Positions 2,711 to 63,017 of a stretch of 64,000 bases of DNA are shown piece after piece. Origin of the DNA: a phage; NCBI GenBank assembly GCA_027337125.1, contig GCA_027337125.1_3057.1. One strand, given 5' to 3'. The notes under the pieces were generated by a model. That model searched no databases, was not told the origin of the DNA, and worked only from the letters and a program-made list of their open reading frames with translations. A program made the translations under genes and the position numbers. Numbering within the stretch: the first letter of the stretch is position 1; the number at the start of each line of letters is the position of its first letter.

Positions 2711-2760
2711 AAAAATTTTTTCACAAAACTGTTTACATCCCTGTTCTTCTATGGTACTAT
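2711..2760 (+). promoter_or_regulatory. T-even early promoter (A/T-rich UP region, -35 GTTTAC 2731-2736, -10 TACTAT 2755-2760)
   Basis: Matches T4 early promoter architecture; member of a repeated promoter cassette family. Confidence 0.6.
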
Positions 2761-2797
2761 ACAACTATCAACTACTGATACGGATTTGGAGAATGAA

Positions 2798-3034
2798 ATG
2801 AAAATTGTTATGGGATGCTTAGCAGTTTGTTTAGTTGCATTAGCAGCAGTTCCATTTGTTAGTGTTGAAAATGATACCCAACCTGTGATTGAATCTAGCA
2901 CTGTTATTCACACTAATGGTAAAATATCAGTTAAAATTGATGATAATCTTCATGTGAATACAAATGGATCTTTAGGTGTGCAAATAGGTAATACCTGCAT
3001 AAGCACTATTGGAGTAATTACTACTTGCATTTGA
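2798..3034 (+). CDS. Small secreted/membrane protein (N-terminal hydrophobic signal-like segment)
   Basis: ATG 2798 preceded by GGAG; track ORF 2786 uses TTG and is less likely; position between 43 and imm. Confidence 0.55.
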   Translation: MKIVMGCLAVCLVALAAVPFVSVENDTQPVIESSTVIHTNGKISVKIDDNLHVNTNGSLGVQIGNTCISTIGVITTCI

Positions 3035-3837: not shown

Positions 3838-4578
3838 ATGATTAATGATTCTTTGACAGTTGAAGAAATCCGTCTTCATTTGGGAATTGCATTAAAGGAA
3901 AAAGATTTCGTAATTGATAAAACTGGTGTTAAAACTATTGAAATTATTGGCGCATCATTTGTAGCAGATGAACCGTTTATTTTTGGCGCTCTTAATGATG
4001 AATACATTCAGCGTGAACTTGAATGGTACAAGTCTCAAAGTCTGTTTGTTAAAGATATTCCAGGCGAAACGCCAAAGATTTGGCAACAGGTAGCATCTTC
4101 TAAAGGTGAAATTAACTCGAATTATGGTTGGGCTATCTGGTCAGAAGATAACTATGCCCAGTATGATATGTGTTTAGCTGAACTTGGTCAAAATCCTGAT
4201 TCTCGCCGCGGTATCATGATTTATACTCGTCCATCCATGCAGTTTGACTACAACAAAGATGGTATGTCAGATTTCATGTGTACGAATACAGTACAGTACC
4301 TGATTCGTGATAAGAAAGTCAATGCAGTAGTAAGCATGCGTTCAAATGACGTGGTCTTTGGATTCCGTAATGATTATGCATGGCAAAAATACGTACTAGA
4401 TAAATTAGTATCTGATTTGAATGCAGGTGATTCAACTCGTCAGTATAAAGCAGGTTCCATTATATGGAATGTTGGAAGCCTTCATGTGTATTCTCGTCAT
4501 TTTTATTTGGTTGACCATTGGTGGAAAACTGGCGAAACTCATATTGCGAAAAAAGATTATAACGGTGAGTGGAAATGA
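3838..4578 (+). CDS. 42: dCMP hydroxymethylase gp42 (246 aa)
   Basis: Translation matches T4 gp42 in sequence and length; thymidylate-synthase-like fold motifs. Confidence 0.93.
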   Translation: MINDSLTVEEIRLHLGIALKEKDFVIDKTGVKTIEIIGASFVADEPFIFGALNDEYIQRELEWYKSQSLFVKDIPGETPKIWQQVASSKGEINSNYGWAIWSEDNYAQYDMCLAELGQNPDSRRGIMIYTRPSMQFDYNKDGMSDFMCTNTVQYLIRDKKVNAVVSMRSNDVVFGFRNDYAWQKYVLDKLVSDLNAGDSTRQYKAGSIIWNVGSLHVYSRHFYLVDHWWKTGETHIAKKDYNGEWK

Positions 4579-5417
4579 TTCAATTCGTAATTCCAAGCTA
4601 TCAACGTGTAGGGGCAGTTTCTGCCCTTGATATGTTTCCGACTGATTATGAACCTCATATTGTAGTACGTAAACACGAAGAAAAAGCTTATTATGACGCT
4701 TATGGGTCTAGAGCTAAAATTATAACTATTCCTGATGATGTTAATGGAATTGCTGGAACTCGTAAAGCAATTACTGATATGTATGCAGGTCAACGAATCT
4801 GGATGATTGACGATGATACTACGATTCGTATGAGTTCAATACGAAAGAGAGACGATAAACGGCGCGTAGATAAAATTAATCAATTAACTCGTGAACAGTT
4901 CTATGAATTGATTCAATACGTTGAAGATGCCATGGATTGCGGGTATTATCATGGCCATGCTCGTCTACCAATTTTTAAAATTACTTCATCTTGGGGTAAT
5001 TATCGTGAAAACTCATATGGATTCACGAATACGTGGTATGACCTCGGAAAACTTACGACAGAACAAATTGGGTATGGAAAAATTGATTTATGCGAAGATA
5101 TGTATGCATTTCTCAATTTAATTAATCAAGGTTATCCGCATTTGGCCTTGTTCAAATATCTAGTTGTATCTGGAAAATCACACGCTCCCGGTGGGTGTAG
5201 TTCAATTCGTAGTAATTCTAAACATAATAGAGCGCTTGAGCAAATCAATAGAGAGTTTCCAGAGCAAGCTCGTTGGAAAACTTCTAATATTGAAAAACGA
5301 AAATCGTTGGGTGAAGAAGATGAACCATTAAAGGTTCTTCGCATGTGTGTTTCGCGTAAAGAAAAATCAGAAGCATTTCATAAGTTTAATGCTATTCATC
5401 CAATAGCAGTTGATTAA
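4575..5417 (+). CDS. GT2-like (GT-A fold) glycosyltransferase, putative HMC-DNA sugar transferase at the beta-gt locus
   Basis: ATG overlaps gene 42 stop (ATGA); N-terminal IPSYQR and DDD (DxD) motifs typical of family 2 glycosyltransferases; 280 aa, unlike T4 beta-gt (351 aa). Confidence 0.6.
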   Translation: MIQFVIPSYQRVGAVSALDMFPTDYEPHIVVRKHEEKAYYDAYGSRAKIITIPDDVNGIAGTRKAITDMYAGQRIWMIDDDTTIRMSSIRKRDDKRRVDKINQLTREQFYELIQYVEDAMDCGYYHGHARLPIFKITSSWGNYRENSYGFTNTWYDLGKLTTEQIGYGKIDLCEDMYAFLNLINQGYPHLALFKYLVVSGKSHAPGGCSSIRSNSKHNRALEQINREFPEQARWKTSNIEKRKSLGEEDEPLKVLRMCVSRKEKSEAFHKFNAIHPIAVD

Positions 5418-5494
5418 TGCCTAAATTTATTGTGTTATAATTACTCTATCTTTAACCAGTGAGGAAAATATAATGATGCCTATGGAAAAAATGA

Positions 5495-6676
5495 ATGTCT
5501 ATTGCAGATTTAAAATCCCGTTTGATTAAAGCTTCCACTTCTAAAATGACTGCTGAACTGACTACATCTAAATTCTTTAATGAAAAGGATGTAATTCGTA
5601 CAAAAATCCCAATGCTTAATATTGCTATTTCTGGTGCGATTGATGGCGGTATGCAGTCTGGTTTAACTATTTTCGCAGGGCCTTCTAAACACTTTAAATC
5701 AAATATGTCTTTGACTATGGTTGCGGCATATTTGAACAAATATCCTGATGCAGTTTGTCTATTCTATGATAGCGAATTTGGTATTACTCCAGCTTATTTG
5801 CGATCCATGGGAGTTGACCCGGAACGAGTAATTCATACGCCAATCCAGTCAGTTGAACAGCTAAAAATTGATATGGTGAATCAGCTTGAAGCTATTGAGC
5901 GCGGTGAAAAGGTTATTGTATTCATCGACTCAATCGGTAATATGGCTTCTAAGAAAGAAACGGAAGATGCCCTGAATGAAAAATCTGTGGCAGATATGAC
6001 TCGTGCTAAATCACTGAAGTCATTATTCCGTATTGTTACTCCTTACTTTAGCATTAAAAATATTCCGTGTGTTGCGGTTAACCATACAATTGAAACAATT
6101 GAAATGTTTAGTAAAACCGTGATGACAGGTGGTACAGGCGTAATGTATTCGGCTGATACCGTATTCATTATCGGTAAACGTCAGATTAAAGATGGTTCTG
6201 ATCTTCAGGGGTATCAATTTGTTCTAAATGTAGAAAAATCTCGTACTGTTAAAGAAAAAAGTAAATTCTTTATTGATGTTAAATTTGACGGTGGTATCGA
6301 TCCTTATTCTGGATTGTTAGATATGGCTCTAGAATTAGGATTTGTAGTAAAACCTAAAAATGGCTGGTATGCTCGTGAATTTCTTGACGAAGAAACCGGC
6401 GAGATGATTCGCGAAGAAAAATCTTGGCGTGCAAAAGATACCAACTGCACTACATTCTGGGGTCCTTTATTTAAGCATCAACCATTCCGAGATGCTATTA
6501 AACGTGCTTATCAGTTAGGTGCTATTGATAGTAATGAAATTGTTGAAGCTGAAGTTGATGAATTGATTAACTCAAAGGTTGAAAAATTTAAATCTCCAGA
6601 AAGTAAAAGTAAATCAGCTGCTGATTTAGAAACTGACCTCGAGCAGTTAAGTGATATGGAAGAATTTAATGAGTAA
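5495..6676 (+). CDS. uvsX: UvsX recombinase (RecA/Rad51 family)
   Basis: Translation matches T4 UvsX; Walker A-like GPSKHFKS; 393 aa. Confidence 0.93.
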   Translation: MSIADLKSRLIKASTSKMTAELTTSKFFNEKDVIRTKIPMLNIAISGAIDGGMQSGLTIFAGPSKHFKSNMSLTMVAAYLNKYPDAVCLFYDSEFGITPAYLRSMGVDPERVIHTPIQSVEQLKIDMVNQLEAIERGEKVIVFIDSIGNMASKKETEDALNEKSVADMTRAKSLKSLFRIVTPYFSIKNIPCVAVNHTIETIEMFSKTVMTGGTGVMYSADTVFIIGKRQIKDGSDLQGYQFVLNVEKSRTVKEKSKFFIDVKFDGGIDPYSGLLDMALELGFVVKPKNGWYAREFLDEETGEMIREEKSWRAKDTNCTTFWGPLFKHQPFRDAIKRAYQLGAIDSNEIVEAEVDELINSKVEKFKSPESKSKSAADLETDLEQLSDMEEFNE

Positions 6677-7028: not shown

Positions 7029-8456
7029 GTGGTAGAAATTATTCTTTCTCATCTCATATTTGATCAAGCTTATTTTTCAAAAGTTTGGCCATATATGGAT
7101 TCAGAATATTTTGAAAGTGGTCCAGCTAAAAATACATTCAAATTAATTAAATCTCATGTTAATGAGTACCATAGCGTTCCATCTATTAATGCGTTAAATG
7201 TTGCATTAGAAAATAGTTCATTTACTGAAACAGAATATTCTGGTGTAAAAACACTTATTTCGAAACTAGCCGATTCTCCAGAAGACCACAGCTGGTTAGT
7301 AAAAGAAACAGAAAAATATGTTCAGCAAAGGGCGATGTTTAATGCTACGTCTAAAATAATTGAAATTCAAACTAATGCTGAGCTTCCTCCGGAAAAACGA
7401 AATAAGAAAATGCCGGATGTTGGTGCTATTCCTGACATCATGCGCCAAGCATTATCAATTTCATTTGATAGTTACGTTGGCCATGATTGGATGGATGACT
7501 ACGAAGCACGTTGGCTATCTTATATGAATAAAGCTCGTAAGGTTCCATTTAAACTCAAAATTCTAAATAAAATTACTAAAGGCGGAGCTGAGACTGGAAC
7601 ACTGAACGTTTTAATGGCTGGTGTTAACGTTGGTAAGTCATTAGGTCTATGTTCATTGGCAGCAGATTATTTACAACTCGGTCATAATGTTCTTTACATT
7701 TCAATGGAAATGGCAGAAGAAGTCTGTGCTAAACGTATTGACGCTAATATGCTCGATGTTTCTCTTGATGACATTGATGATGGGCATATTTCTTATGCTG
7801 AGTATAAAGGAAAAATGGAAAAATGGCGTGAGAAATCTACTCTCGGCCGTTTAATCGTTAAACAGTATCCTACTGGCGGAGCAGACGCTAATACATTTAG
7901 ATCGCTTTTAAACGAATTAAAGCTCAAGAAGAATTTTGTTCCAACAATCATTATTGTTGACTATCTAGGTATTTGTAAATCTTGCCGCATCAGAGTTTAC
8001 TCAGAAAATAGTTACACAACTGTTAAAGCTATCGCAGAGGAATTGCGTGCTCTGGCTGTTGAAACAGAAACTGTTCTTTGGACTGCAGCGCAGGTTGGTA
8101 AACAAGCTTGGGATTCTTCCGATGTTAACATGAGCGATATTGCAGAATCCGCCGGTCTTCCAGCAACAGCCGATTTTATGCTTGCGGTCATTGAAACCGA
8201 GGAGTTAGCAGCTGCTGAACAACAACTCATTAAGCAAATCAAATCACGATATGGTGATAAGAATAAATGGAATAAGTTTTTGATGGGTGTTCAAAAAGGA
8301 AATCAGAAATGGGTAGAAATTGAACAAGATTCTACTCCAACTGAAGTGAACGAAGTAGCAGGTTCACAGCAGATTCAGGCTGAACAGAACCGCTATCAAA
8401 GAAACGAATCTACTCGAGCTCAGTTAGATGCTTTGGCGAATGAATTAAAATTTTAG
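7029..8456 (+). CDS. 41: Replicative DNA helicase gp41 (DnaB-like), GTG start
   Basis: 475 aa; Walker A GVNVGKS; GGAG RBS 5 nt upstream of GTG. Confidence 0.93.
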   Translation: MVEIILSHLIFDQAYFSKVWPYMDSEYFESGPAKNTFKLIKSHVNEYHSVPSINALNVALENSSFTETEYSGVKTLISKLADSPEDHSWLVKETEKYVQQRAMFNATSKIIEIQTNAELPPEKRNKKMPDVGAIPDIMRQALSISFDSYVGHDWMDDYEARWLSYMNKARKVPFKLKILNKITKGGAETGTLNVLMAGVNVGKSLGLCSLAADYLQLGHNVLYISMEMAEEVCAKRIDANMLDVSLDDIDDGHISYAEYKGKMEKWREKSTLGRLIVKQYPTGGADANTFRSLLNELKLKKNFVPTIIIVDYLGICKSCRIRVYSENSYTTVKAIAEELRALAVETETVLWTAAQVGKQAWDSSDVNMSDIAESAGLPATADFMLAVIETEELAAAEQQLIKQIKSRYGDKNKWNKFLMGVQKGNQKWVEIEQDSTPTEVNEVAGSQQIQAEQNRYQRNESTRAQLDALANELKF

Positions 8457-8493
8457 TTTACAAGCTGACAAGACTATGGTATAGTAGTCTTGT
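8456..8493 (+). promoter_or_regulatory. Early promoter (GTTTAC 8456-8461, -10 TATAGT) with 9-bp inverted repeat 8468-8476/8485-8493 enclosing the -10
   Basis: Promoter consensus plus perfect inverted repeat ACAAGACTA/TAGTCTTGT. Confidence 0.55.
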
Positions 8494-8698: not shown

Positions 8699-8941
8699 AT
8701 GCACATTGTTTTATTTAAACCTACTCCGTATAATGTCAAGAAAAATACTCAATTCAAAGCACTTGTTGCAGATACGTGGGAATTGGTGTTAGATATTCCA
8801 GCAGAAGAAAGTCCTCCATTTGGTCGAGTGGAATTTATTAAGTTTGCTGTGCGCCCTACGAAGCGACAGATTCGCCAATGCAAAAGATACTTTCGTAAAA
8901 TCGTCAAGTTAGAGAAACAGTTATTGATGCTAGTAAAATAG
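8699..8941 (+). CDS. Hypothetical protein (80 aa; basic C-terminus)
   Basis: ATG 8699 with AGAGGA RBS; 61.x-type small ORF. Confidence 0.5.
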   Translation: MHIVLFKPTPYNVKKNTQFKALVADTWELVLDIPAEESPPFGRVEFIKFAVRPTKRQIRQCKRYFRKIVKLEKQLLMLVK

Positions 8942-8943
8942 TA

Positions 8944-8985
8944 GTTTACAAGCTGATAGAGTTGTGTTATAGTAATTCTATCAGC
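8944..8985 (+). promoter_or_regulatory. Early promoter (GTTTAC 8944-8949, -10 TATAGT) with 9-bp inverted repeat 8952-8960/8977-8985
   Basis: GCTGATAGA ... TCTATCAGC flanks the -10. Confidence 0.55.
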
Positions 8986-9004
8986 TAATCGTGGAGAAAA
9001 GAAA

Positions 9005-9259
9005 ATGATGCTAGTTAATAGAGAATATCAGTTTAAATCAGAAGAAGATTTGGAAAAATTCGCGAGTGGTTGTGAACTGAATAGACGCACAGCTAAAGTC
9101 ATAGGATTAAAACCCTTTACAGTTCTAGATTGTGAAGTTTCTAAATTCCGCAGAGGGTGTTCTATTAGCGGTCATGCTCTGGTTGATGGGAACACATTTT
9201 TCTTTGTTTTTAGCGTCAGAGAACTTTTATTGATTAACGAACTTGAGGAAATAAAATAG
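9005..9259 (+). CDS. Hypothetical protein (84 aa)
   Basis: ATG with GGAGA RBS. Confidence 0.5.
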   Translation: MMLVNREYQFKSEEDLEKFASGCELNRRTAKVIGLKPFTVLDCEVSKFRRGCSISGHALVDGNTFFFVFSVRELLLINELEEIK

Positions 9260-9316
9260 TTTACTTTTGTTGGAAATTGAGATACTATATAAACATAAAC
9301 TACTGAGGAGATTATC

Positions 9317-9610
9317 ATGAAAAAATTTGTTTTTGCTGCAATTTTTGCTTTGGCTTCTTGTGCTGCTCAGCCTGCTATGGCGGGTTATGATAAAGATTTG
9401 TGCGAATGGTCTATGACTGCAGATCAGACTGAGGTTGAAACTCAGATTGAAGCAGATATTATGAATATCGTTGAACGTGATCGCCCTGAAATGAAAGCTG
9501 AAGTACAAAAACAGCTTAAGTCTGGTGGTGTAATGCAGTATAATTACGTTCTGTATTGTGATAAAAACTTCAATAATAAAAATATCATCGCTGAAGTAGT
9601 AGGTGAATAA
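9317..9610 (+). CDS. sp: Spackle periplasmic protein (superinfection exclusion / lysis inhibition), 97 aa
   Basis: Signal peptide MKKFVFAAIFALASCAAQPAMA; matches T4 Sp (61.3); GAGGAG RBS. Confidence 0.75.
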   Translation: MKKFVFAAIFALASCAAQPAMAGYDKDLCEWSMTADQTEVETQIEADIMNIVERDRPEMKAEVQKQLKSGGVMQYNYVLYCDKNFNNKNIIAEVVGE

Positions 9611-9622
9611 TTAGAGGCTAAT

Positions 9623-11015: not shown

Positions 11016-11063
11016 GCGTCGTCCTCCTTTAAATTAATATTTATCGCAAATTTTACAAAATTT

Positions 11064-11097
11064 GTTTACTTTCTCAGCTTGTTATGGTATTATAAAA
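11064..11097 (+). promoter_or_regulatory. Early promoter (GTTTAC 11064-11069, extended -10 TGGTATTATAAA)
   Basis: Consensus early promoter about 25 nt upstream of the 186-aa ORF RBS. Confidence 0.55.
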
Positions 11098-11118
11098 TAA
11101 ACTGCTGAGGATAATATA

Positions 11119-12458
<1,340 letters not shown>

Positions 12459-12518: not shown

Positions 12519-13037
12519 ATGGCATACTTTAATGAATGTTCACAACTGATTGAAGGCGCTGATAAAGCTCAAAATGAATACTGGGATATTCTCGGTGATG
12601 AAAAAGACCCGCTGCAGGTTATGCTTGATATGCAGAAATCTTTACAGGTTCGTTTAGCTAAAGATAAACCTGAATATAACCGTCATCCTGATGATTTGGC
12701 TACTGCAGGTGAAGTTGTTGATTGGCTACGTAATCAGAAAGATTATATTGACGATGAATTCCGCGAACTTCTGACTTCTCTTGGCGGTATGAGCAATGGT
12801 GAAAAAGATGCATCTGCTGTATGGAAGCCTTGGAAAGCTCAACATGGTGAACGCCGTGAAACTCTAATTACTGATTTGTCTCCACAAGACCAGTTGGAAA
12901 TTAAATTCGAAATGATTGATATTCTTCATTTCGTTCTGAACATGTTCCAAGGTCTCGGCCTTACAGCTGAAGAAATCTTTAAACTTTATTATCTGAAAAA
13001 TGCTGAAAACTTCGCGCGTCAAGACCGAGGTTATTAA
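12519..13037 (+). CDS. 56: dCTPase/dUTPase gp56
   Basis: Matches T4 gp56; ATG 12519 with AAGGA RBS (track start 12504 is TTG). Confidence 0.85.
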   Translation: MAYFNECSQLIEGADKAQNEYWDILGDEKDPLQVMLDMQKSLQVRLAKDKPEYNRHPDDLATAGEVVDWLRNQKDYIDDEFRELLTSLGGMSNGEKDASAVWKPWKAQHGERRETLITDLSPQDQLEIKFEMIDILHFVLNMFQGLGLTAEEIFKLYYLKNAENFARQDRGY

Positions 13038-13081
13038 TGGCTCGTTTATTTAAACGACGACTTAAAAGCCGTGAGAATTAT

Positions 13082-13089
13082 TATAAATA
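13082..13089 (+). promoter_or_regulatory. Late promoter TATAAATA for soc
   Basis: Exact T4 late promoter octamer about 30 nt upstream of soc ATG. Confidence 0.7.
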
Positions 13090-13365: not shown

Positions 13366-13370
13366 ATTCA

Positions 13371-13396
13371 GGGACTCCTTCGGGAGTCCTTTTTTC
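13371..13396 (+). terminator. Intrinsic terminator after soc (GGGACUCC-UUCG-GGAGUCC + U6)
   Basis: Perfect hairpin with UUCG loop and T-tract. Confidence 0.75.
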
Positions 13397-13405
13397 ATTT
13401 TACCG

Positions 13406-13435
13406 GTTTACTTTCCACAATGAGTATGGTATAAT
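13406..13435 (+). promoter_or_regulatory. Early promoter (GTTTAC 13406-13411, -10 TATAAT 13430-13435)
   Basis: 18-bp spacer, extended TGGTATAAT. Confidence 0.6.
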
Positions 13436-13461
13436 AGAATTATCTTATAGAGGAGAGCACT

Positions 13462-15319: not shown

Positions 15320-15502
15320 ATGGATTTATTTGAGATGTTAGAAGATAATCATTCTACGAATATCCAGAATGATTCTAGTGATTATAAGAAAGAATACCGT
15401 ATAGTATTACAGAATTATGGAATTGAAGCCCCAGATGCTCTTCTAGAAGAACTGGCTTCATACCATCTTGACCCTCCGCCTTGGGCTCCCTGGGCAAAAT
15501 AA
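15320..15502 (+). CDS. Hypothetical protein (60 aa)
   Basis: Small ORF in operon context. Confidence 0.45.
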   Translation: MDLFEMLEDNHSTNIQNDSSDYKKEYRIVLQNYGIEAPDALLEELASYHLDPPPWAPWAK

Positions 15503-15512
15503 TTCAAAAAGT

Positions 15513-15541
15513 TGTTTACTTTCCTTTCTAACGATGATATG
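15513..15541 (+). promoter_or_regulatory. Early promoter (GTTTAC 15513-15518, -10 TATGAT)
   Basis: Promoter consensus upstream of modB. Confidence 0.5.
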
Positions 15542-15569
15542 ATAGCTTCTGAAGTATACGGAGGCTATC

Positions 15570-16792: not shown

Positions 16793-16848
16793 TGGAAGGA
16801 CTTAGATTCATTATACCATGAAAGTTTTAAAGCATTTTTCATAAAGTT

Positions 16849-16878
16849 GTTTACAAGCTGAAGTAAAAATGTTATAAT
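16849..16878 (+). promoter_or_regulatory. Early promoter (GTTTAC 16849-16854, -10 TATAAT 16873-16878)
   Basis: 18-bp spacer. Confidence 0.6.
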
Positions 16879-16908
16879 ATAAGTAGTTAACCCGTCCGTG
16901 AGAAAAAT

Positions 16909-19786: not shown

Positions 19787-20469
19787 TGTTTGATTTTATT
19801 ATAGATTTTGAAACAATGGGAAGCGGTGAAAAGGCAGCTGTTATTGATTTGGCTGTTATTGCCTTTGACCCTAATCCAGAAGTAGTTGAATCATTTGATG
19901 AATTAGTTTCGCGCGGCATTAAAATCAAATTTGATTTAAAAAGCCAAAAAGGACATCGTCTTTTTACTAAAAGCACTATCGAATGGTGGAAAAATCAGTC
20001 TCCTGAAGCTCGAAAAAATATTGCACCATCAGATGAAGATGTAAGCACTATCGATGGTATTGTAAAATTTAATGATTACATCAATGCACATAACATCGAT
20101 CCTTGGAAATCTCAAGGATGGTGCCGTGGAATGTCGTTTGATTTTCCAATTTTAGTCGATCTCATTCGCGATATTCAACGTCTTAATGGCGTTTCTGAGA
20201 ATGAACTTGACACATTTAAGTTAGAACCATGTAAATTCTGGAATCAGCGTGATATTCGTACCAGAATTGAAGCACTTCTCCTTGTTCGTGATATGACCAC
20301 GTGTCCTCTTCCAAAGGGAACTTTAGATGGATTCGTTGCACATGATTCTATTCATGACTGTGCGAAAGACATCTTGATGATGAAGTATGCTTTGCGATAT
20401 GCTATGGGTCTTGAAGACGCTCCGTCAGAGGAAGAGTGCGATCCTCTATCTCTTCCAACAAAACGATAA
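19786..20469 (+). CDS. dexA: Exonuclease A (DnaQ-like 3'-5' exonuclease)
   Basis: 227 aa; N-terminal FIIDFETMG exonuclease motif; matches T4 DexA. Confidence 0.88.
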   Translation: MFDFIIDFETMGSGEKAAVIDLAVIAFDPNPEVVESFDELVSRGIKIKFDLKSQKGHRLFTKSTIEWWKNQSPEARKNIAPSDEDVSTIDGIVKFNDYINAHNIDPWKSQGWCRGMSFDFPILVDLIRDIQRLNGVSENELDTFKLEPCKFWNQRDIRTRIEALLLVRDMTTCPLPKGTLDGFVAHDSIHDCAKDILMMKYALRYAMGLEDAPSEEECDPLSLPTKR

Positions 20470-20475
20470 AAAGTT

Positions 20476-20505
20476 GTTTACTTCCTCGGTTAGTTGTGGT
20501 ATTAT
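20476..20505 (+). promoter_or_regulatory. Early promoter (GTTTAC 20476-20481, -10 TATTAT 20500-20505)
   Basis: 18-bp spacer, TGGTATTAT extended -10. Confidence 0.55.
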
Positions 20506-20532
20506 AACACCATAGTTACTGAGGATAATAAA

Positions 20533-21035: not shown

Positions 21036-21578
21036 ATGAAATTTAATTATAATCCTGAATATACACCAAATCCGGTAGCTAAACTGATTGATTTTGATGT
21101 TGTAAGCACTTATGTATGCCCTGTTAAACCACTGGAAATTAAGGAATCTACTATGACTACCGCTATTGAAATCGGCAAAACCTACAAACTAGTTGAACCT
21201 GAAATTAAAACCAATGCCTTGATTTCCGGCTATAAAACTTTGACTGATGTTTTTGGCGAAGGCGAATTTACTGTTGAAGACTTTGGAAAAAGTAAATGGT
21301 TTACTAAATCTTATATTGTCCACGGTCGTCGTTTAGACAATAACAAAATAGAGAAAATCCTGGTTTATGAAGCAGAGTTCATCCTGTTCCAAGAAGTTGA
21401 AGAACAAGACCCTACAGACCTTCTAACTCGTGCTATAGCTATCAAGACTCCATTTATTTCGGTCTGTGGTTGGGTAACAGACCAATGGATTGAAGATGGC
21501 GTTGAACTTCTGAACGTTGTTCATGCAGGTGATTTTAGTGTAGTACCTCGTAGTGCGGTGGTAGCTATTTTGAATTAA
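21036..21578 (+). CDS. Hypothetical protein (180 aa); C-terminal domain paralogous to next ORF
   Basis: Shares C-terminal TDQW(I/V)EDGV(E/K)L block with 21655..22146. Confidence 0.6.
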   Translation: MKFNYNPEYTPNPVAKLIDFDVVSTYVCPVKPLEIKESTMTTAIEIGKTYKLVEPEIKTNALISGYKTLTDVFGEGEFTVEDFGKSKWFTKSYIVHGRRLDNNKIEKILVYEAEFILFQEVEEQDPTDLLTRAIAIKTPFISVCGWVTDQWIEDGVELLNVVHAGDFSVVPRSAVVAILN

Positions 21579-21580
21579 TA

Positions 21581-21616
21581 GTTTACAAACTCTTGGGACC
21601 AGAGTATAATGGTCCC
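21581..21616 (+). promoter_or_regulatory. Early promoter (GTTTAC 21581-21586, -10 TATAAT 21605-21610) with GGGACC/GGTCCC inverted repeat flanking the -10
   Basis: Consensus hexamers; 6-bp inverted repeat 21595-21600/21611-21616. Confidence 0.6.
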
Positions 21617-21654
21617 GCGGAGTATAAAATCTTTTTAACAAGTGAGAGATAACT

Positions 21655-22151: not shown

Positions 22152-22221
22152 AAAATTTTTTCATAAAACTATATACATCAGTAGTTGATTATGGTACTAT
22201 ATCAATATCAACTACTGATAC
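22152..22221 (+). repeat. Promoter-cassette repeat copy lacking GTTTAC -35, with 13-bp perfect inverted repeat (22177-22189 / 22207-22219) around the -10
   Basis: ATCAGTAGTTGAT ... ATCAACTACTGAT encloses tatggtactata; shares 3' half with cassettes at 2711, 34138, 51432. Confidence 0.6.
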
Positions 22222-22244
22222 AGAAAAACAACTTGGAGAATAAA

Positions 22245-22514
22245 ATGGAAAACTTAATTATCATCGAACAATCTTTCAACGATTATGGTATGGCTTACGG
22301 TTATCGTGCGATAATGGAAGATTCTCGTGGATGTGTTATCGATATTGCTGAATGTAAAGATTTACTGCAGCTTTTGAAGACTGTTCGCAAAAATTGGGAT
22401 TGTGAAAATATTAAAGCTCGAGTTGTTACAGAAGAAGAAACTGTTTTTCATGATGTAAAATTCGCCAAAGGTGCTGCTACTCTTCTGAAACGTATCGCTC
22501 CACTGTTCAATTAA
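22245..22514 (+). CDS. Hypothetical protein (89 aa)
   Basis: ATG 22245 with GGAG RBS. Confidence 0.55.
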   Translation: MENLIIIEQSFNDYGMAYGYRAIMEDSRGCVIDIAECKDLLQLLKTVRKNWDCENIKARVVTEEETVFHDVKFAKGAATLLKRIAPLFN

Positions 22515-24049: not shown

Positions 24050-25867
24050 ATGATTAAGAATGAAATTAAAATTCTGAGCGATATTGAACATATCAAAAAG
24101 CGTAGCGGCATGTACATTGGTTCTTCTGCTAATGAAATGCATGAGCGCTTTCTGTTTGGTAAATGGGAAAGTGTTCAGTATGTACCTGGTCTTGTTAAGC
24201 TTATTGATGAAATTATCGATAACTCAGTAGATGAAGGTATTCGTACTAAGTTTAAATTCGCGAATAAAATTAATGTTACTATTAAAAACAATCAAGTAAC
24301 AGTTGAAGATAACGGTCGTGGTATTCCACAAGCGATGGTTAAAACACCTACTGGTGAAGAAATTCCTGGTCCTGTTGCTGCCTGGACTATTCCAAAAGCA
24401 GGTGGTAACTTCGGTGATGATAAAGAACGCGTCACTGGCGGTATGAACGGTGTTGGTTCTAGTTTAACTAACATTTTTTCTGTGATGTTTGTCGGTGAAA
24501 CTGGCGACGGTCAAAATAATATTGTAGTTCGTTGTTCAAATGGCATGGAAAATAAATCATGGGAAACTATTCCTGGAAAATGGAAGGGAACACGTGTTAC
24601 TTTCATTCCTGATTTTATGTCATTTGAAACTAATGAGCTATCTCAAGTTTATCTTGACATTACATTAGATCGCCTCCAGACACTTGCAGTAGTTTATCCT
24701 GATATTCAATTTACCTTTAATGGTAAAAAGGTTCAGGGTAATTTTAAGAAATATGCACGCCAATATGATGAGCATGCTATCGTTCAAGAACAGGAAAATT
24801 GCTCTATTGCGGTTGGTCGTTCACCGGATGGTTTTCGTCAATTAACATACGTCAATAACATTCATACTAAGAATGGTGGTCATCACATTGACTGTGTTAT
24901 GGATGATATTTGTGAAGACCTTATTCCACAAATCAAACGTAAGTTCAAAATTGATGTAACTAAAGCACGTGTTAAAGAATGTTTGACTATCGTTATGTTT
25001 GTCCGTGATATGAAAAACATGCGATTTGATTCTCAAACTAAAGAGCGTTTGACTTCTCCATTTGGTGAAATTCGTAGTCATATTCAGCTTGATGCTAAAA
25101 AGATTTCACGTGCTATTTTAAATAATGAAGCAATTTTAATGCCAATTATTGAAGCTGCTTTGGCTCGTAAATTGGCGGCAGAAAAAGCAGCAGAAACTAA
25201 AGCAGCTAAAAAGGCTTCTAAAGCTAAGGTTCATAAACATATTAAAGCGAATCTTTGTGGTAAAGATGCTGACACTACTCTTTTCTTGACTGAGGGTGAT
25301 TCGGCTATTGGGTATCTTATTGATGTTCGTGATAAAGAACTTCATGGTGGTTATCCATTACGTGGTAAAGTTCTCAACAGCTGGGGTATGTCATATGCTG
25401 ATATGCTTAAAAATAAAGAACTGTTTGATATTTGCGCAATCACTGGATTAGTTCTTGGTGAAAAAGCCGAAAACTTGAATTATCATAATATTGCTATTAT
25501 GACTGACGCTGACCACGATGGTCTAGGAAGCATTTATCCTTCTCTGCTCGGATTTTTTAGTAATTGGCCAGAACTGTTTGAACAAGGAAGAATTCGCTTT
25601 GTCAAAACTCCTGTAATCATCGCTCAGGTCGGTAAAAAACAAGAATGGTTTTATACAGTCGCTGAATATGAGAGTGCCAAAGATGCTCTACCTAAACATA
25701 GCATCCGTTATATTAAAGGACTTGGCTCTTTGGAAAAATCTGAATATCGTGAGATGATTCAAAACCCAGTATATGATGTTGTTAAACTTCCTGAGAATTG
25801 GAAAGAGCTTTTTGAAATGCTCATGGGAGATAATGCTGACCTTCGTAAAGAATGGATGAGCCAGTAG
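24050..25867 (+). CDS. 39: DNA topoisomerase II large subunit gp39, unsplit form (605 aa)
   Basis: GHKL ATPase, TOPRIM (EGDSA, DADHDG), KGLG and C-terminal LMGD motifs all in one ORF; no separate gene 60. Confidence 0.9.
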   Translation: MIKNEIKILSDIEHIKKRSGMYIGSSANEMHERFLFGKWESVQYVPGLVKLIDEIIDNSVDEGIRTKFKFANKINVTIKNNQVTVEDNGRGIPQAMVKTPTGEEIPGPVAAWTIPKAGGNFGDDKERVTGGMNGVGSSLTNIFSVMFVGETGDGQNNIVVRCSNGMENKSWETIPGKWKGTRVTFIPDFMSFETNELSQVYLDITLDRLQTLAVVYPDIQFTFNGKKVQGNFKKYARQYDEHAIVQEQENCSIAVGRSPDGFRQLTYVNNIHTKNGGHHIDCVMDDICEDLIPQIKRKFKIDVTKARVKECLTIVMFVRDMKNMRFDSQTKERLTSPFGEIRSHIQLDAKKISRAILNNEAILMPIIEAALARKLAAEKAAETKAAKKASKAKVHKHIKANLCGKDADTTLFLTEGDSAIGYLIDVRDKELHGGYPLRGKVLNSWGMSYADMLKNKELFDICAITGLVLGEKAENLNYHNIAIMTDADHDGLGSIYPSLLGFFSNWPELFEQGRIRFVKTPVIIAQVGKKQEWFYTVAEYESAKDALPKHSIRYIKGLGSLEKSEYREMIQNPVYDVVKLPENWKELFEMLMGDNADLRKEWMSQ

Positions 25868-29848: not shown

Positions 29849-30338
29849 CTTGACTAGTGAAATGAAGGTCAAAATTGCTGATACAGCAAGATACTCTTTA
29901 AAACAAAATCCTAATCAGGATAAAGCAGAAGTTATCGAAAGATGCCGTATTGCGGTGTACGCAGAGTTTTTTGTAGCAGATTGGCTAAGCGGATATGTTA
30001 ACAAAGGACAAGAGGATGTTAATGACCCGTATACATATGCATGGGATGTACTGGCGCATCCAAAATACTGCGGGCTTCGTGTAGAAGTCAAAACACATCA
30101 AACTGACTCACGTTGGATTTCGGTAACAACCGGATGCAGCGGAGAGTATCCATACGGTTCTGGAATAAATCTAGGGCCCATTCTGAATCACCAAGTCGCT
30201 GACTGTATAATTATATTCAACACTAAAGAAATTCATCCAGGTGTCATCAAGTACACTCCGAAGTTCATCGGTGATAGAGAAGACCTTCGTAAAGTTGTAA
30301 GAAAAAGCAACTACAACGGATGGTATCTTTCCATTTAA
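29781..30338 (+). CDS. denB: Endonuclease IV (DenB), 185 aa; start uncertain (overlaps upstream ORF by 68 nt)
   Basis: Size and position (rIIB to ndd) as T4 denB; AAAGGA RBS 8 nt upstream. Confidence 0.55.
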   Translation: MQKTNPGLQRLFQIPTFTLSNNDLTSEMKVKIADTARYSLKQNPNQDKAEVIERCRIAVYAEFFVADWLSGYVNKGQEDVNDPYTYAWDVLAHPKYCGLRVEVKTHQTDSRWISVTTGCSGEYPYGSGINLGPILNHQVADCIIIFNTKEIHPGVIKYTPKFIGDREDLRKVVRKSNYNGWYLSI

Positions 30339-30354
30339 AAATTTTCACAAAACG

Positions 30355-30385
30355 GTTTACAAACCACAAGGACTGTGGTACTATA
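30355..30385 (+). promoter_or_regulatory. Early promoter cassette (GTTTAC 30355-30360, -10 TACTAT 30380-30385)
   Basis: Near-identical to cassettes at 2711, 34138, 51432. Confidence 0.6.
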
Positions 30386-30412
30386 CAACTATCAACTGCG
30401 GAGGAGCGGAAA

Positions 30413-30676
30413 ATGAAATTTAAATTTTATTATGCTAAACATAAAATAACTGATGAGTTTGTGTCAGTTGAATATTCTAGCGATGATGAAGGTATGATTT
30501 ATACTCGCTTAGGATTATCGCATTGGGAATCTGATCAGCCTTATTTTTCAACTCCTGAAGAAATTACACGCTTAGTTAATGGTCATATGAATGACCACTG
30601 GAATGTAATTCTTTCAGATAGTCTTAAAGCGGCTATTAATAGTAATGAAATGAAAATCGCTGAGATTGAACTATGA
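30413..30676 (+). CDS. Hypothetical protein (87 aa)
   Basis: GGAGGAG RBS; ATG 30413. Confidence 0.55.
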   Translation: MKFKFYYAKHKITDEFVSVEYSSDDEGMIYTRLGLSHWESDQPYFSTPEEITRLVNGHMNDHWNVILSDSLKAAINSNEMKIAEIEL

Positions 30677-30860
30677 GTTCGTTATGGTGGTGTTTTGTTT
30701 GGTTAATTAGTATTCCAGTAATTTGTTTAACATTTACTTTTGTAATGAGGCTATTATGAAAATTTTGAATTCTGTACTTATTGCTTGTGCGTGGTGGGTT
30801 GCGCAAGTTTCGGCAGTTGTGATTGGCATTCACATTTATTACGAATATTTTTAAAAAGTG

Positions 30861-30890
30861 GTTTACAAGACTGTTCCTCTGTGGTATTAT
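30861..30890 (+). promoter_or_regulatory. Early promoter (GTTTAC 30861-30866, -10 TATTAT 30885-30890)
   Basis: Consensus early promoter. Confidence 0.55.
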
Positions 30891-30915
30891 TCTATCAACT
30901 ATGGAGGAACAGAAA

Positions 30916-34101: not shown

Positions 34102-34106
34102 TTTTA

Positions 34107-34134
34107 GGGAGAGCCGAGGCTCTCCCTTTTTTAT
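34107..34134 (+). terminator. Intrinsic terminator (GGGAGAGCC-gag-GGCUCUCCC + U6)
   Basis: 9-bp perfect stem and T-tract. Confidence 0.8.
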
Positions 34135-34157
34135 TTTAAAAATTTTTTCACAAAACG

Positions 34158-34187
34158 GTTTACAACCAAAGCATACTGTGGTACTAT
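34158..34187 (+). promoter_or_regulatory. Early promoter cassette for motA (GTTTAC 34158-34163, -10 TACTAT 34182-34187)
   Basis: Near-identical copy of the repeated promoter cassette. Confidence 0.65.
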
Positions 34188-34228
34188 ACAACTATCAACT
34201 ACTGATACAGAATTACGGAGATTAGAAA

Positions 34229-34864
34229 ATGTCTAAAGTAACTTACATCATCAAAGCTTCTAACGATGTTCTGAATGAAAAAACTGCTGCGATTTTAATT
34301 ACCATTGCTAAGAAAGATTTCATTACAGCTGCAGAAGTTCGTGAGGTGCATCCAGATTTAGGTAATGCAGTAGTTAATAGTAATATTGGGGTATTGATTA
34401 AAAAAGGCCTGGTGGAGAAATCTGGTGATGGATTAATCATTACTGGTGAAGCTCAGGATATTATTTCAAATGCAGCAACTTTATACGCGCAAGAAAACGC
34501 TCCTGAACTGCTGAAAAAACGAGCAACTCGTAAAGCTCGCGAGATTACTTCTGATATGGAAGAAGATAAAGACCTCATGTTAAAACTGCTAGATGAAAAT
34601 GGATTTGTTCTTAAAAAGGTTGAAACTTACCGCAGTAACTATCTTGCTATTTTAGAAAAACGCACTCACGGAATTCGCAATTTTGAAATTAACAATAATG
34701 GAAACATGCGAATTTTTGGATACAAAATGATGGAACATCATATTCAGAAATTTACTGACATCGGAATGTCATGTAAAATCGCTAAAAACGGTAATGTGTA
34801 TCTTGACATTAAACGCTCGGTAGAAAACATTGAAGCTGTAATCACTGTAGCATCTGAACTGTGA
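34229..34864 (+). CDS. motA: MotA middle-transcription activator
   Basis: 211 aa; matches T4 MotA. Confidence 0.92.
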   Translation: MSKVTYIIKASNDVLNEKTAAILITIAKKDFITAAEVREVHPDLGNAVVNSNIGVLIKKGLVEKSGDGLIITGEAQDIISNAATLYAQENAPELLKKRATRKAREITSDMEEDKDLMLKLLDENGFVLKKVETYRSNYLAILEKRTHGIRNFEINNNGNMRIFGYKMMEHHIQKFTDIGMSCKIAKNGNVYLDIKRSVENIEAVITVASEL

Positions 34865-36522: not shown

Positions 36523-36671
36523 GTCATAATCTTGAAAAGGTAATCGAGCATAATGTAGCTCAGGAACGTGAGTCGTTCAAGGAATTCGTAGAAAAAATTT
36601 TTGAAGAAAATAACACAGACCAGTTTACAAATCAAACGTCTGATGATATTATAACAAAGTCAACTAATTGA
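36519..36671 (+). CDS. Hypothetical small acidic protein (50 aa), not in ORF track
   Basis: ATGA overlap with upstream stop. Confidence 0.35.
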   Translation: MSHNLEKVIEHNVAQERESFKEFVEKIFEENNTDQFTNQTSDDIITKSTN

Positions 36672-37632: not shown

Positions 37633-37640
37633 TATTTATA
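37633..37640 (-). promoter_or_regulatory. Late promoter TATAAATA for t
   Basis: Exact octamer on - strand about 20 nt upstream of t ATG. Confidence 0.7.
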
Positions 37641-37658
37641 ACTGAGAGGTATTATCGT

Positions 37659-38432
37659 TTAAATCCAGGAGCCGTAGATCGTGCCTGTAGCACCCCATGA
37701 CGGTGAACTTCCGAATACTGCTCTGCCAGGAGCACCACCGCCAGATCTAGATAAGTGATTACCCCATCCATCTCCGCCCCGACCTCCAGCATCACCGCCA
37801 TTGCCTCCGCCGAATTGGGAAGTGTAGCCGGCACCGCCCGGCGCGTCATAACTAGCATTACCACCCGGCCAATTAACGCCGCCTCCGCCGATGCCAAATG
37901 GTCTACCGCCACCGCCACCTGCTGTAGCATTTGGCGCCCAGCTATTCTTTAATGACACTGCACCACCACCGCCACCGCCTGATGCAATAACGCCATAGTT
38001 CCAAATACGAAGTCTTCCGCCGATATCATTTTGGATTACATCGCCGCCATTTGTGCCTGGGTTTCCATTTACGCTACCGTTACCACCTCGTCCCCACATA
38101 TGAACTCCACCATGAATATTCAAAGTAACATATTCATTTGGTGTATCTCCGTACATGAAGAATAAAGGAACGTCTCTAGAATATGATACCAAATTTCCAG
38201 TGATATTAAACACTATAGGTGCACTACCTGCCTCAAAACATCTATCTCGGAACCATTGACCATTGAAGTTATGGTCTGCTCCAAGTGTGTGAATTACTTC
38301 AACAGATCGACCTATCATATTACTCATCCAAAATGGAGTACCCATTCTTAATCGTTGGGCCGCGCCGCCCATCCAATTTTGTCCTGTATTAACTACTGCA
38401 GACGATCCTACCCACGGTCCTGTTACTGCCAT
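37659..38432 (-). CDS. 38: gp38 tail-fiber adhesin of the T2/T6 type (glycine-rich motifs separating variable segments)
   Basis: 257 aa; conserved N-terminus [20 protein letters not shown]; multiple poly-Gly stretches; GGAGG RBS. Confidence 0.88.
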
Positions 38433-38444
38433 ATAAACCTCCAA

Positions 38445-38458
38445 GGGGCCGAAGCCCC
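38445..38458 (-). other. UUCG hairpin (GGGGC-UUCG-GCCCC) between 37 and 38, immediately upstream of the gene 38 SD
   Basis: Perfect stem and tetraloop on - strand RNA; no U-tract. Confidence 0.55.
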
Positions 38459-38463
38459 TCTTA

Positions 38464-41400: not shown

Positions 41401-41793
41401 GCGTTCGCGACTATTGCCATCGAAAAAACGAACATGTGCTGTACCTGAACTTTTTGTAATAAGTTCACCGCCTTCGGTCATAATCTGCCCGGCGGCAATA
41501 ATATCGCGAGTTACTCGAGCAATACCAGTTAAATTAAAATTACCTGTCTGAGTGAAAGTGCCATTTAAAGTATAATCACCAGTTTGATTATAGTTTCCTG
41601 TATGAATAACATTCCCGTCAATGCTACCGCCTTTAGCAAAACCCAGATCAATAATATTTCCTTGGTCGTCTTTAGTAAAAAGTACGCGGTCTTTTAAGTT
41701 TATAGCCAATTCACCTTCGGCTAATACTGAAGCGGCAGGACGTGCTCCTGCAGTTTTGCTTCTTTTAAATTGTATTTGTTTTAAAGTAGCCAT
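38464..41793 (-). CDS. 37: Long tail fiber distal subunit gp37 with C-terminal intramolecular-chaperone-like domain
   Basis: 1109 aa; N-terminus matches T-even gp37; C-terminal RSDIRVKKD motif and coiled-coil tail resemble autoproteolytic chaperone domains. Confidence 0.9.
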
Positions 41794-47520: not shown

Positions 47521-47554
47521 TCTCCCGGGCTCCTATTGTGTTTTCAATAATAAG

Positions 47555-47562
47555 TATTTATA
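47555..47562 (-). promoter_or_regulatory. Late promoter TATAAATA for gene 34
   Basis: Exact octamer on - strand about 35 nt upstream of gene 34 ATG. Confidence 0.7.
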
Positions 47563-47565
47563 CTT

Positions 47566-47595
47566 GTTTACTTTAAGATTTGGATGGTATATAAT
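47566..47595 (+). promoter_or_regulatory. Early promoter for rnh (GTTTAC 47566-47571, -10 TATAAT 47590-47595), divergent from and overlapping the gene 34 late promoter
   Basis: 18-bp spacer; extended TGGTATATAAT. Confidence 0.6.
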
Positions 47596-47624
47596 AGAAA
47601 TCTCACTAATTGAACGAGGTTCAT

Positions 47625-51402: not shown

Positions 51403-51428
51403 GGGGACCCTAGAGGTCCCCTTTTTTA
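51403..51428 (+). terminator. Intrinsic terminator after gene 32 (GGGGACC-cuaga-GGUCCCC + U6)
   Basis: 7-bp G/C stem and T-tract. Confidence 0.8.
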
Positions 51429-51452
51429 TTTCAAAAATTTTTTCACAAAACG

Positions 51453-51482
51453 GTTTACAAGCATAAAGCTTTATGGTACTAT
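51453..51482 (+). promoter_or_regulatory. Early promoter cassette (GTTTAC 51453-51458, -10 TACTAT 51477-51482)
   Basis: Near-identical to cassettes at 2711, 30338, 34138. Confidence 0.65.
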
Positions 51483-51525
51483 ACAACTATCGGCAATACT
51501 GCTGATGATTAAAGAGGAAAATAAT

Positions 51526-52182: not shown

Positions 52183-52217
52183 TTTACAGTAGGGTAGTAG
52201 TGTGATACTATTACCCT
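52182..52217 (+). promoter_or_regulatory. Early promoter (GTTTAC 52182-52187, -10 TACTAT) with AGGGTA/TACCCT inverted repeat flanking the -10
   Basis: Consensus hexamers and 6-bp inverted repeat. Confidence 0.55.

Positions 52218-61429: not shown

Positions 61430-63017
<1,588 letters not shown>

Follow-up and report, generated by a model that had tools for sequence, protein, structure and literature searches.

The DNA analysed here, a stretch of 64,000 nucleotides of phage origin that we call the window, is a segment of a Tequatrovirus (T4-like) genome, collinear with T4 and 92–98% identical to it. Its first 20 kb show 96–97% identity to many Escherichia Tequatrovirus genomes. The chain of blastn matches places window positions 1–28325 on T4 29809–1 and positions 28326–64000 on T4 168903–135357 and, because of the orientation of this chain, the plus strand of the window is the early-transcribed strand of T4. 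It is on this strand that a family of dispersed repeats is found, and all coordinates given below refer to it.

The core of the family is an 18-mer, TGGTACTATACAACTATC, present exactly at 2752–2769, 30376–30393, 34179–34196 and 51474–51491, and with three mismatches at 22192–22209. Shuffled versions of the window hold 0.04 matches of this type on average, and none of 100 shuffles had five. Upstream lies a 27-mer, AAAATTTTTTCACAAAACGGTTTACAA, found with zero to three mismatches at 2712, 30336, 34139 and 51434, where none is expected. A preliminary description, made from the letters alone, had announced four copies combining a GTTTAC upstream block with an identical 18-mer, and a fifth keeping the 3' half without GTTTAC. 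This is what we find, at 2752, 30376, 34179 and 51474 for the former and at 22192 for the latter, which carries ATATAC where the other four have GTTTAC, at the −35 position. Aligned with flanks of about 100 bp, the copies display two conserved blocks and, between them, 15 nt of spacer wholly different from copy to copy; sequences outside the cassettes are unrelated. The similarity goes further than had been described: 3' of the 18-mer it continues as ATCAACTACTGATAC(A/G)GA...GGAGAAT(A/G)AAATG, down to the Shine–Dalgarno (SD) sequence and start codon, at 2752, 22192 and 34179, and the complete unit is about 90–100 bp long.

The first cassette, at the imm.1 locus (2711–2800), comes after the stop codon of gene 43 and a terminator-like hairpin, AGGGACCTCCAGGTCCCT with a T run (2626–2643), which ends 88 nt before its −35. 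It comprises an UP element (2711–2730), the −35 GTTTAC (2731–2736), TG (2752–2753), the −10 TACTAT (2755–2760), a predicted +1 at 2767 and GGAGAATGAAA (2788–2798), at once SD and RegB-like site; the ATG at 2798 opens a 78-aa ORF (2798–3034) without T4 counterpart. At the motB/cef locus (22152–22247) we find the −35-like ATATAC (22171–22176), the −10 TACTAT (22195–22200), a predicted +1 at 22207, a 13-bp inverted repeat with arms at 22177–22189 and 22207–22219, then GGAGAATAAAA (22235–22245) and the ATG (22245) of an 89-aa ORF that is a remnant in T4. The cassette of the denB/ndd.6 locus (30336–30415) has a UP-like region (30336–30354), the −35 GTTTAC (30355–30360), a −10 (30379–30384), a predicted +1 at 30391 and a leader, GCGGAGGAGCGGAAA, unlike that of other phages; its ATG (30413) begins an 87-aa ORF of which T4 retains the last 8 codons only. 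The motA promoter (34138–34231) is preceded by an intrinsic-terminator hairpin, AGGGAGAGCCGAGGCTCTCCCT (34106–34127), whose T run continues into the UP element (34138–34157); there follow the −35 (34158–34163), the −10 (34182–34187), a predicted +1 at 34194, the SD sequence GGAG (34217–34220) and the ATG of motA (34229; 211 aa). Finally, after gene 32 and another intrinsic-terminator hairpin, GGGGACCCTAGAGGTCCCC with a T run (51403–51421), the frd.3 promoter (51432–51528) consists of an UP element (51433–51452), a −35 (51453–51458), the spacer AAGCATAAAGCTTTA, a −10 (51477–51482) and a predicted +1 at 51489, before the ATG of frd.3 (51526; 76 aa).

All five copies coincide with T4 copies, located before imm.1, cef, ndd.6, motA and frd.3 (at 27.1, 6.6, 167.1, 163.7 and 146.9 kb), in the gene pairs 43/imm.1, motB/cef, denB/ndd.6, motA.1/motA and 32/frd.3. 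T4 holds the exact 18-mer seven times, four of them at the positions of window copies, and the same three-mismatch copy before cef. A 79-bp cassette used as a query met 3339 places in 545 phage records, typically six or seven per genome and nearly all in Tequatrovirus, and the positions are conserved in IMG/VR genomes as well. T4 and the window have all five positions in common, so that no mobility of the cassettes is visible. Traits of transposons or MITEs (terminal inverted repeats, target-site duplication, variable position) were not found among the five copies. Compared with T4, the imm.1 copy has another spacer and another first downstream ORF, the cef copy another first downstream ORF, and the ndd.6 copy differs in all three respects, spacer, leader and first downstream ORF.

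Early promoters and the blocks they conserve

In four of the copies (−35 at 2731, 30355, 34158 and 51453) GTTTAC(a/t) is separated by 17 bp, counted from TTTACA, from a TAnnAT −10; in the copy at 22171 ATATAC occupies the −35 and the spacing to the −10 is unchanged. TGG stands ahead of TACTAT in all five, creating an extended −10 (TGn). A generic sigma-70 scan of the window had no discrimination (94 matches, 84 expected). The early strand of T4 contains 39 instances of the pattern GTTTAC-N18-TAnnnT and the opposite strand none, and a PWM built from these T4 sites converged on 38, all of the early strand. This T4-trained PWM recognizes 19 early-promoter sites in the window, every one on the plus strand (the best minus-strand score is 0.2), and the four highest of the 19 scores belong to the five cassettes. 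The T4 records NC_000866 and AF158101 have no annotated promoter features, and a single promoter name, Pe133295, appears in a note. The −36 G of the corresponding PWM site lies at 133331, exactly 36 nt upstream, and this agreement validates both the PWM model and the offset of the predicted +1, from which the five predicted starts (2767, 22207, 30391, 34194 and 51489) derive. Our literature search returned no usable T4 start-site mapping. In the record of Yersinia phage fPS-2, the motA copy is annotated as 'terminator' and then 'predicted early promoter'. The ORFs begin 22–37 nt past the predicted +1 and the promoters are co-oriented with early genes. The MotA box of T4 middle promoters, (a/t)(a/t)(a/t)TGCTTtA, was looked for too: there is no TGCTT in the cassettes, which have GTTTACA at −36 to −30.

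The early-promoter reading of the preliminary description is thus upheld: collinearity with T4, the positions of the T4 copies, the PWM with its Pe133295 agreement, and the fPS-2 annotation support the identity of the copies as early promoters, their start sites being predicted. The 22192 copy, without a good −35 (ATATAC), may depend on TGn and the −10. There is no essential difference between the window copies and the T4 early promoters of the literature (Liebig and Rüger, 1989; Wilkens and Rüger, 1994, 1996; Miller et al., 2003; PMC2988021): GTTTAC at −36 to −31, the 17-bp spacing, TGn, TAnnAT, an A/T-rich UP region, strand and genomic positions are all shared. That the conservation exceeds the needs of sigma-70, as had been remarked, is correct and already published, since this literature describes an extended consensus beyond the sigma-70 elements: Nolan et al. 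(PMC1524935) report GTTTAC at −36 to −31 with an A-rich UP-like region, and the review by Hinton (PMC2988021) lists UP, −35, TGn and −10 elements with 'additional regions of consensus'.

The upstream block, AAAAATTTTTTCACAAA, is a perfect UP element for alpha-CTD, matching every specified position of the core of the full UP-element consensus of E. coli. That full consensus, due to Estrem et al. in 1998, reportedly reads NNAAAWWTWTTTTNNNAAANNN. Its core is exact at 2711, 34138 and 51433, the only three matches in the 64-kb window. E. coli UP promoters such as rrnB P1 share this core with the cassettes; in the latter, however, the match is 1 bp nearer to the −35 than is canonical, and the −35 is GTTTAC rather than TTGACA. 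The downstream block contains TGn, the −10 TACTAT and the start region. Per-position information content in T4 reveals that 29 other early promoters conserve only A-tracts, GTTTACA and TGTGnTAnnAT, and that the nine family members additionally conserve the full UP element and ACAACTATCAACTACTGA, from −6 to +12; this block is specific to the nine-member sub-family and is not common to the other 29.

The end of the leader matters for the fate of the message. The optimal site for RegB/S1 cleavage is GGAGAAUAAAA (PMC1702504); it is exact at 22235–22245 and has one mismatch at 2788–2798, which makes both of them candidate RegB sites. Another candidate is GGAGATTAGAA at 34217, with GGAG in the SD sequence of the motA copy, and motA mRNA is a known RegB target, cut within its SD. 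The frd.3 copy has GAGGAAAATAA in place of a GGAG site. UP element, extended −10 and candidate RegB site explain the conserved blocks apart from the −6 to +12 segment, and no new function is needed for them. As for RNA structure, a 5'-terminal leader hairpin (UAUCA...UGAUA) was considered and rejected as a conserved element (−1.9 kcal/mol, z +1.2, lost in ACTGATAC variants), and the window had no Rfam matches at gathering thresholds.

The family had also been likened to promoter-early stem-loops (PeSLs), laid out as a hairpin, an AT-rich region, an early promoter, SD and ATG (PMC2839356, PMC4122927), with the consensus TTTACW-N17-TAYWAT for the T4/PST pair (PMC4122927). The 3' end of the cassettes, running from promoter to SD to start codon, is that of a PeSL. 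The hairpin is there at just two or three of the five copies: terminators end 31–32 nt before the −35 at 34158 and 51453, so that the comparison fits the copies at 34179 and 51474; it fits the one at 2752 loosely, with its 88 nt before 2731, and does not fit those at 22192 and 30376, no terminator hairpin being found upstream of 22171 or 30355. In T4, such a terminator precedes five of nine family members and four of the 29 other early promoters (Fisher p = 0.02), which makes the family the subset of early promoters that best fits the published layout.

Exchange between copies and indels at their borders

The frd.3 locus was compared in seven phages (the window, T4, RB51, RB32 and three from IMG/VR). 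Terminator, both blocks and leader are identical or nearly so, and the spacer is of two types. One, AAGCATAAAGCTTTA, belongs to the window and T4, and is also the spacer of the T4 nrdC.10 cassette. The other, ATCCnTGTnCTTCnA, belongs to the remaining five and recurs in the e.8 and imm.1 cassettes; in RB32 and L018 it equals the spacer of the imm.1 copy of the window at 15 of 15 positions. Over 530 records, identity at this locus is bimodal, with 78 at 95% or more and 444 at 80–95%, and the spacer type of the window is in the minority. Given at least 11 clustered differences, independent point mutation is a very unlikely source of this swap, which we read as a short patch conversion whose ends would lie inside the conserved blocks. 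At the level of patches, exchange between copies is apparent in these alignments, and the window affords, at the frd.3 locus, a clean, citable case of such exchange among dispersed promoter copies. The motA locus of L017 and L019 has an extra ORF of about 88 aa between two promoter copies with a common 23-bp leader, and in L017 and L030 half cassettes are seen, a terminator being fused to a spacer or to a −10. Chimeric and half cassettes are common to PeSLs and to the window family.

Studies of PeSLs in RB49/phi1 (Arbiol et al., 2010; PMC2839356) and in the pairs PST/T4 and nt-1/KVP40 (Comeau et al., 2014; PMC4122927) place them beside indels of close relatives, and sequencing in RB49/phi1 revealed mini-circles whose crossovers lie within PeSLs (PMC2839356). 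In the window, by contrast, the copies are 4–20 kb apart with essential genes between them, which makes PeSL mini-circles of 0.4–1.4 kb impossible. In the account given by PMC2839356, Repoila et al. (1994) had described early-promoter repeats flanking interchangeable small genes at the IP loci of T-even phages; the loci named there (ipI, ipII/III) are outside the window and differ from those discussed here.

We located junctions at the nucleotide level from T4, IMG/VR loci and two further records, a BLAST survey of the ndd locus giving coverage rather than breakpoints. Between the window and T4 there are 19 gaps of at least 30 bp. In six of them an early promoter lies on or within a boundary, and three of the five cassettes (imm.1, cef, ndd.6) are among these promoters; other phages show variation at the motA and frd.3 loci. 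The 19 early promoters of the window are distributed among about 94 gene junctions, and a random indel would touch one with probability 0.36. Against this gene-junction null the six in 19 are no excess (p = 0.74), and neither are six in 13 when homing-endonuclease and tail-fibre differences are removed (p = 0.32). A pooled enrichment (window and IMG/VR loci, 22 of 74 gaps against 5.7 expected) was discounted, as it assumes uniform placement and counts events shared among genomes. The proposal that the cassettes flank exchangeable modules and act as recombination sites is supported, with a caveat: the frd.3 spacer swap, the bracketed motA ORF and the PeSL match (PMC4122927) speak for it, and indels do adjoin three copies, but their number stays within what gene junctions alone would give. 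Wherever a cassette–indel association is quoted it should face this null, a test that it fails on this window.

The junctions of the three indels at cassettes are start-codon repeats of 6–8 bp: ATGAAAAT at each end of the extra 78-aa ORF at 2798, ATGGAAAA at the 22245 junction, and the 8-bp AAATGAAA at 30411 and 30648. In other gaps between the window and T4 the overlaps are of 5–15 bp, often SD-ATG-AAA. T4 is known from experiment to delete and amplify via microhomologies of 6–10 bp (PMC9391042). With junctions of this kind, the microhomology route needs no cassette, and the cassettes are one of several recurrent gene-start homologies. A cassette-to-cassette replacement at ndd.6 in T4 was dropped for the same reason, AAATGAAA being at both ends and a microhomology deletion being enough. 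In T4 the first ORF is largely or wholly gone from all three places (imm.1, cef and ndd.6), and promoter, SD and ATG persist; if the deletions that survive are those preserving an expression signal, much of the indel pattern can be explained.

How the family may be explained

We consider it highly probable (about 0.9) that the five copies are early promoters of the T4 type, arranged as complete immediate-early expression cassettes, with long identical blocks usable for ectopic exchange; the promoter mechanism is drawn from the sequence and from orthology with T4. The sigma-70 RNA polymerase of the host would bind together the UP element (AAAAATTTTTTCACAAA, through alpha-CTD), the GTTTACA −35, TGn and the TACTAT −10, and such very strong promoters would capture it right after infection. 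Initiation is predicted about 7 nt past the −10, and the leader of 22–37 nt would end in GGAG and an A-rich SD matching the RegB/S1 site, so that inactivation of the message could follow after a few minutes. An upstream intrinsic terminator would insulate the unit in two or three copies. The near-identity suggests that both blocks (27 nt and 18–40 nt) are functional almost base for base and, as they are long and identical, phage homologous recombination could use them for ectopic exchange. Both roles, promoter and recombination linker, are already published, and the finding is real but ordinary. A T4 early-promoter consensus is credited to Liebig and Rüger (1989, as cited in PMC9391042) and is treated by Hinton (2010; PMC2988021); promoter-based repeats flanking exchangeable T-even genes were proposed in 1994 (Repoila, as related in PMC2839356); PeSLs were formalized in 2010 and 2014, with the T4/PST pair and the ndd region included (Comeau et al., 2014; PMC4122927). 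With T4 early promoters catalogued since 1989, the family has little weight as a discovery.

It might be held that the copies are promoters only, kept near-identical by selection for maximal strength, their overlap with indels coming from gene-junction ends and from surviving deletions. Much of what precedes agrees with this: the gene-junction null is not exceeded; the junctions sit at 6–8-bp start-codon repeats outside the long conserved blocks, in line with laboratory deletions and amplifications of T4 at 6–10-bp microhomologies (PMC9391042); the five positions are conserved relative to T4; and spacers wholly different in most copies go against simple homogenization. Yet a spacer patch was swapped at frd.3 between types found elsewhere, with both flanks identical, two promoter copies enclose an ORF at the motA locus of L017 and L019, and the mini-circles of RB49/phi1 have their crossovers in PeSLs (PMC2839356), so that we think this restriction to promoters unlikely. 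Active mobility goes to the other extreme: a dedicated recombinase would recognize the cassette, or its GGG...CCC hairpin, and promoter-plus-ORF mini-circles would move between genomes. Arbiol et al. (2010; PMC2839356) raised that possibility, three terminator stems (34106, 51403 and 2626) follow the GGG(A/G)...CCC scheme, and two promoter-plus-ORF modules of the window (8922–9252 and 11050–11592) are missing from T4. We find it hardly credible: the copies show neither terminal inverted repeats nor target-site duplications, their positions are conserved in T4, the window and IMG/VR genomes, the hairpin is missing at two of five, the junctions are ordinary microhomologies, and the cassettes have no candidate recombinase associated with them.

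A further idea takes ACAACTATCAACTACTGA, from −6 to +12, as a site specific to the sub-family for an additional factor, involved in shut-off at 2–3 min or in stimulation of the Alt-modified polymerase. Being nearly invariant in the nine T4 members, absent from the other 29 early promoters, conserved over 545 genomes and devoid of significant RNA structure, the block invites such a thought, all the more since reviews (PMC2988021, PMC3014915) state that neither the shut-off of early promoters nor the sequence determinants of Alt stimulation are understood. No protein or experiment points to the block, however; concerted evolution by patch conversion, with selection for initiation and escape, could hold it constant, and the frd.3 copy diverges from +4 onward. 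We regard this factor site as quite improbable, and retain the cassettes as T4-type early promoters with exchangeable blocks.

Hairpins across the −10 in other early promoters

With the PWM, 19 early promoters and their predicted starts can now be placed in the window, a gain for its annotation. About half of those outside the family sit in covarying hairpins across the −10. Hairpins are found at 8434–8492 (PWM score 32.9; within a 13-bp hairpin across the −10), 8922–8980 (31.9; inside a 329-bp segment that T4 is without, with a goF-like ORF of 84 aa at 9005–9259), 15492–15550 (37.0), 21559–21617 (29.7; TGGGACC / GGTCCCG) and 52160–52218 (51.3; a 71-bp difference from T4 begins just 3'). The SD region takes part in the pairing at 20454–20512 (42.3; with the spacer, in read-through RNA), 30839–30897 (41.5; a 14-bp helix of spacer with SD) and 62999–63057 (33.8; SD within a 12-bp helix). 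Further early promoters lie at 9237–9295 (28.8; before sp), 11042–11100 (30.5; on the left border of a 541-bp segment that T4 is without, with an ORF of 186 aa at 11119–11679), 13384–13442 (30.6; a terminator hairpin at 13370–13391 ends 15 nt before the −35), 16827–16885 (36.2), 36601–36659 (33.6) and 47544–47602 (26.3; before rnh).

In T4, 14 of 38 early promoters possess a spacer perfectly complementary, over 6 bp or more, to part of the 18 nt following the −10, against a mean of 2.9 and a maximum of 9 in a control of mismatched spacers and downstream regions (2000 permutations). A helix of 7 bp or more occurs in 18 of 98 distinct cores, always in the same register (−17 pairs with −6), other registers being empty; their loop consists precisely of TGn and the −10 hexamer, with the SD outside. 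One pair is A-T in nine cores and G-C in nine; there are 14 G-T pairs, which favours RNA of the sense strand. In a variant that masks the SD, found in other promoters, a TTCCTC-type spacer is paired with a GAGGAA SD. Folding from spacer to ATG gives z = −4.6 to −7.0 at nine of the 19 window promoters; RNA from +1 has almost no structure. Strong hairpins and upstream terminators tend to avoid each other: in T4 none of nine early promoters with a terminator has a strong hairpin, against 13 of 29 without (p = 0.016), and in the window none of five against nine of 14 (p = 0.033).

The natural interpretation is that the hairpin would form only in RNA reading through from an upstream promoter. Tentatively, and with the odds against it, two mutually exclusive designs of T-even early promoters may be distinguished, one insulated by a terminator, its UP element perfect and its leader free of structure, the other embedded in a covarying hairpin of which the spacer is the left arm, the 22192 copy included. 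If this were true, the same gene would be handled differently, its SD masked or its RNA processed, according to the promoter from which the transcript originates. A comparable device exists at T4 e, soc, 49 and I-TevI, where the promoter is inside an RNA hairpin and only the promoter-proximal transcript is translatable (PMC3014915); it would then extend to early promoters as a general design rule. As in these genes, the hairpins would form in read-through RNA only and several sequester the SD; in contrast, the internal promoter is late there and early here, and the loop of the 18 cores is made of TGn and the −10 hexamer, without the SD. Two T4 reviews make no mention of hairpin-embedded early promoters, which the primary T4 literature may nevertheless contain. 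Within the family itself, the hairpin type is represented by the 22171 copy, whose 13-bp helix has −20.7 kcal/mol; the four near-identical cassettes do not belong to it (z = +0.7 to −2.7).

Predicted cleavage sites and hairpins around early promoters

The leaders of the early-promoter cassettes end, on their 3' side, in a sequence that corresponds, at 22235-22245, 2788-2798 and 34217-34227, to GGAGAAUAAAA, published as the optimum for RegB/S1 cleavage; the match is exact at 22235, and there is a single mismatch at 2788. This predicted site overlaps the SD. The cassette would thus seem to provide for a burst of expression as well as for the shut-off of that burst.

Outside the near-identical family, about half of the early promoters, in the window as in T4 (L001-L004), are embedded in covarying hairpins. 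In the window these are found at 8434-8492, 8922-8980, 15492-15550, 20454-20512, 21559-21617, 22171-22219, 30839-30897, 52160-52218 and 62999-63057. The left arm of the hairpin is the spacer between the -35 and -10 elements. The loop consists of exactly TGn and the -10 hexamer in 18 of the 98 distinct promoter cores that were compared; in others, it is the SD that pairs with the spacer. Such a hairpin can form only in read-through RNA, that is, in transcripts initiated at an upstream promoter. Hairpin and upstream terminator never occur together: none of the nine T4 early promoters preceded by a terminator has a hairpin, versus 13 of the 29 without one (p = 0.016).

Half cassettes are present in other T4-like genomes. 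At the motA locus of L017 (reverse strand, region of 2125), a terminator hairpin is joined directly to the spacer, and at the nrdC.10 locus of L030 (reverse strand, region of 9037) it is joined to the -10 block. In both, the UP element and the -35 have been deleted, and the downstream gene therefore keeps only the TGn/-10 half.

Gene modules next to early promoters

The T4 counterpart of window 8922-9612 has been described as an anti-toxin island comprising dmd, 61.4/tifA and 61.2/adfA (PMC9391042). Between 61.4 and sp, the window has an additional promoter followed by a goF-like ORF of 84 aa (9005-9259, phrog_2980), and gene 61.2/adfA is wholly missing from it, T4 19757-19141 being without counterpart at 9611/9612.

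Another promoter and ORF module, absent from T4, lies immediately upstream of dam (11042-11679). Its 186-aa ORF (11119-11679, phrog_8706) weakly resembles the DpnII (GATC) restriction endonuclease in Pfam, with an E-value of 0.0025 and 17.6 bits, which is below the cut-off of 23. A possible GATC nuclease-like gene would here adjoin the GATC methylase gene.

Introns, homing endonucleases and the topoisomerase genes

A scan of window 1-64000 at gathering thresholds returned no Rfam family. Yet the alignment of td and nrdB to the intron-containing T4 genes is unbroken; these ORF-bearing introns either escape the group I models or were removed by the filters.

The remaining large differences from T4 (13000-13082, 4560-5507, 58571-59132, 60026-60503 and 37640-41607) are linked to homing endonucleases or adhesins: segF is missing, 946 bp stand in for the segA/beta-gt region, the mobE region is substituted, the I-TevIII region exceeds the defective T4 copy by 476 bp, and the region of the distal tail fibre and gene 38 is substituted.

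At 25467-25532, finally, 64 bp take the place of 1117 bp of T4, a stretch that runs from the end of gene 39 through mobA and 60.1 into the start of gene 60, including its 50-nt translational bypass. In the window phage, the gene for the topoisomerase large subunit is probably unsplit, and the bypass element missing.
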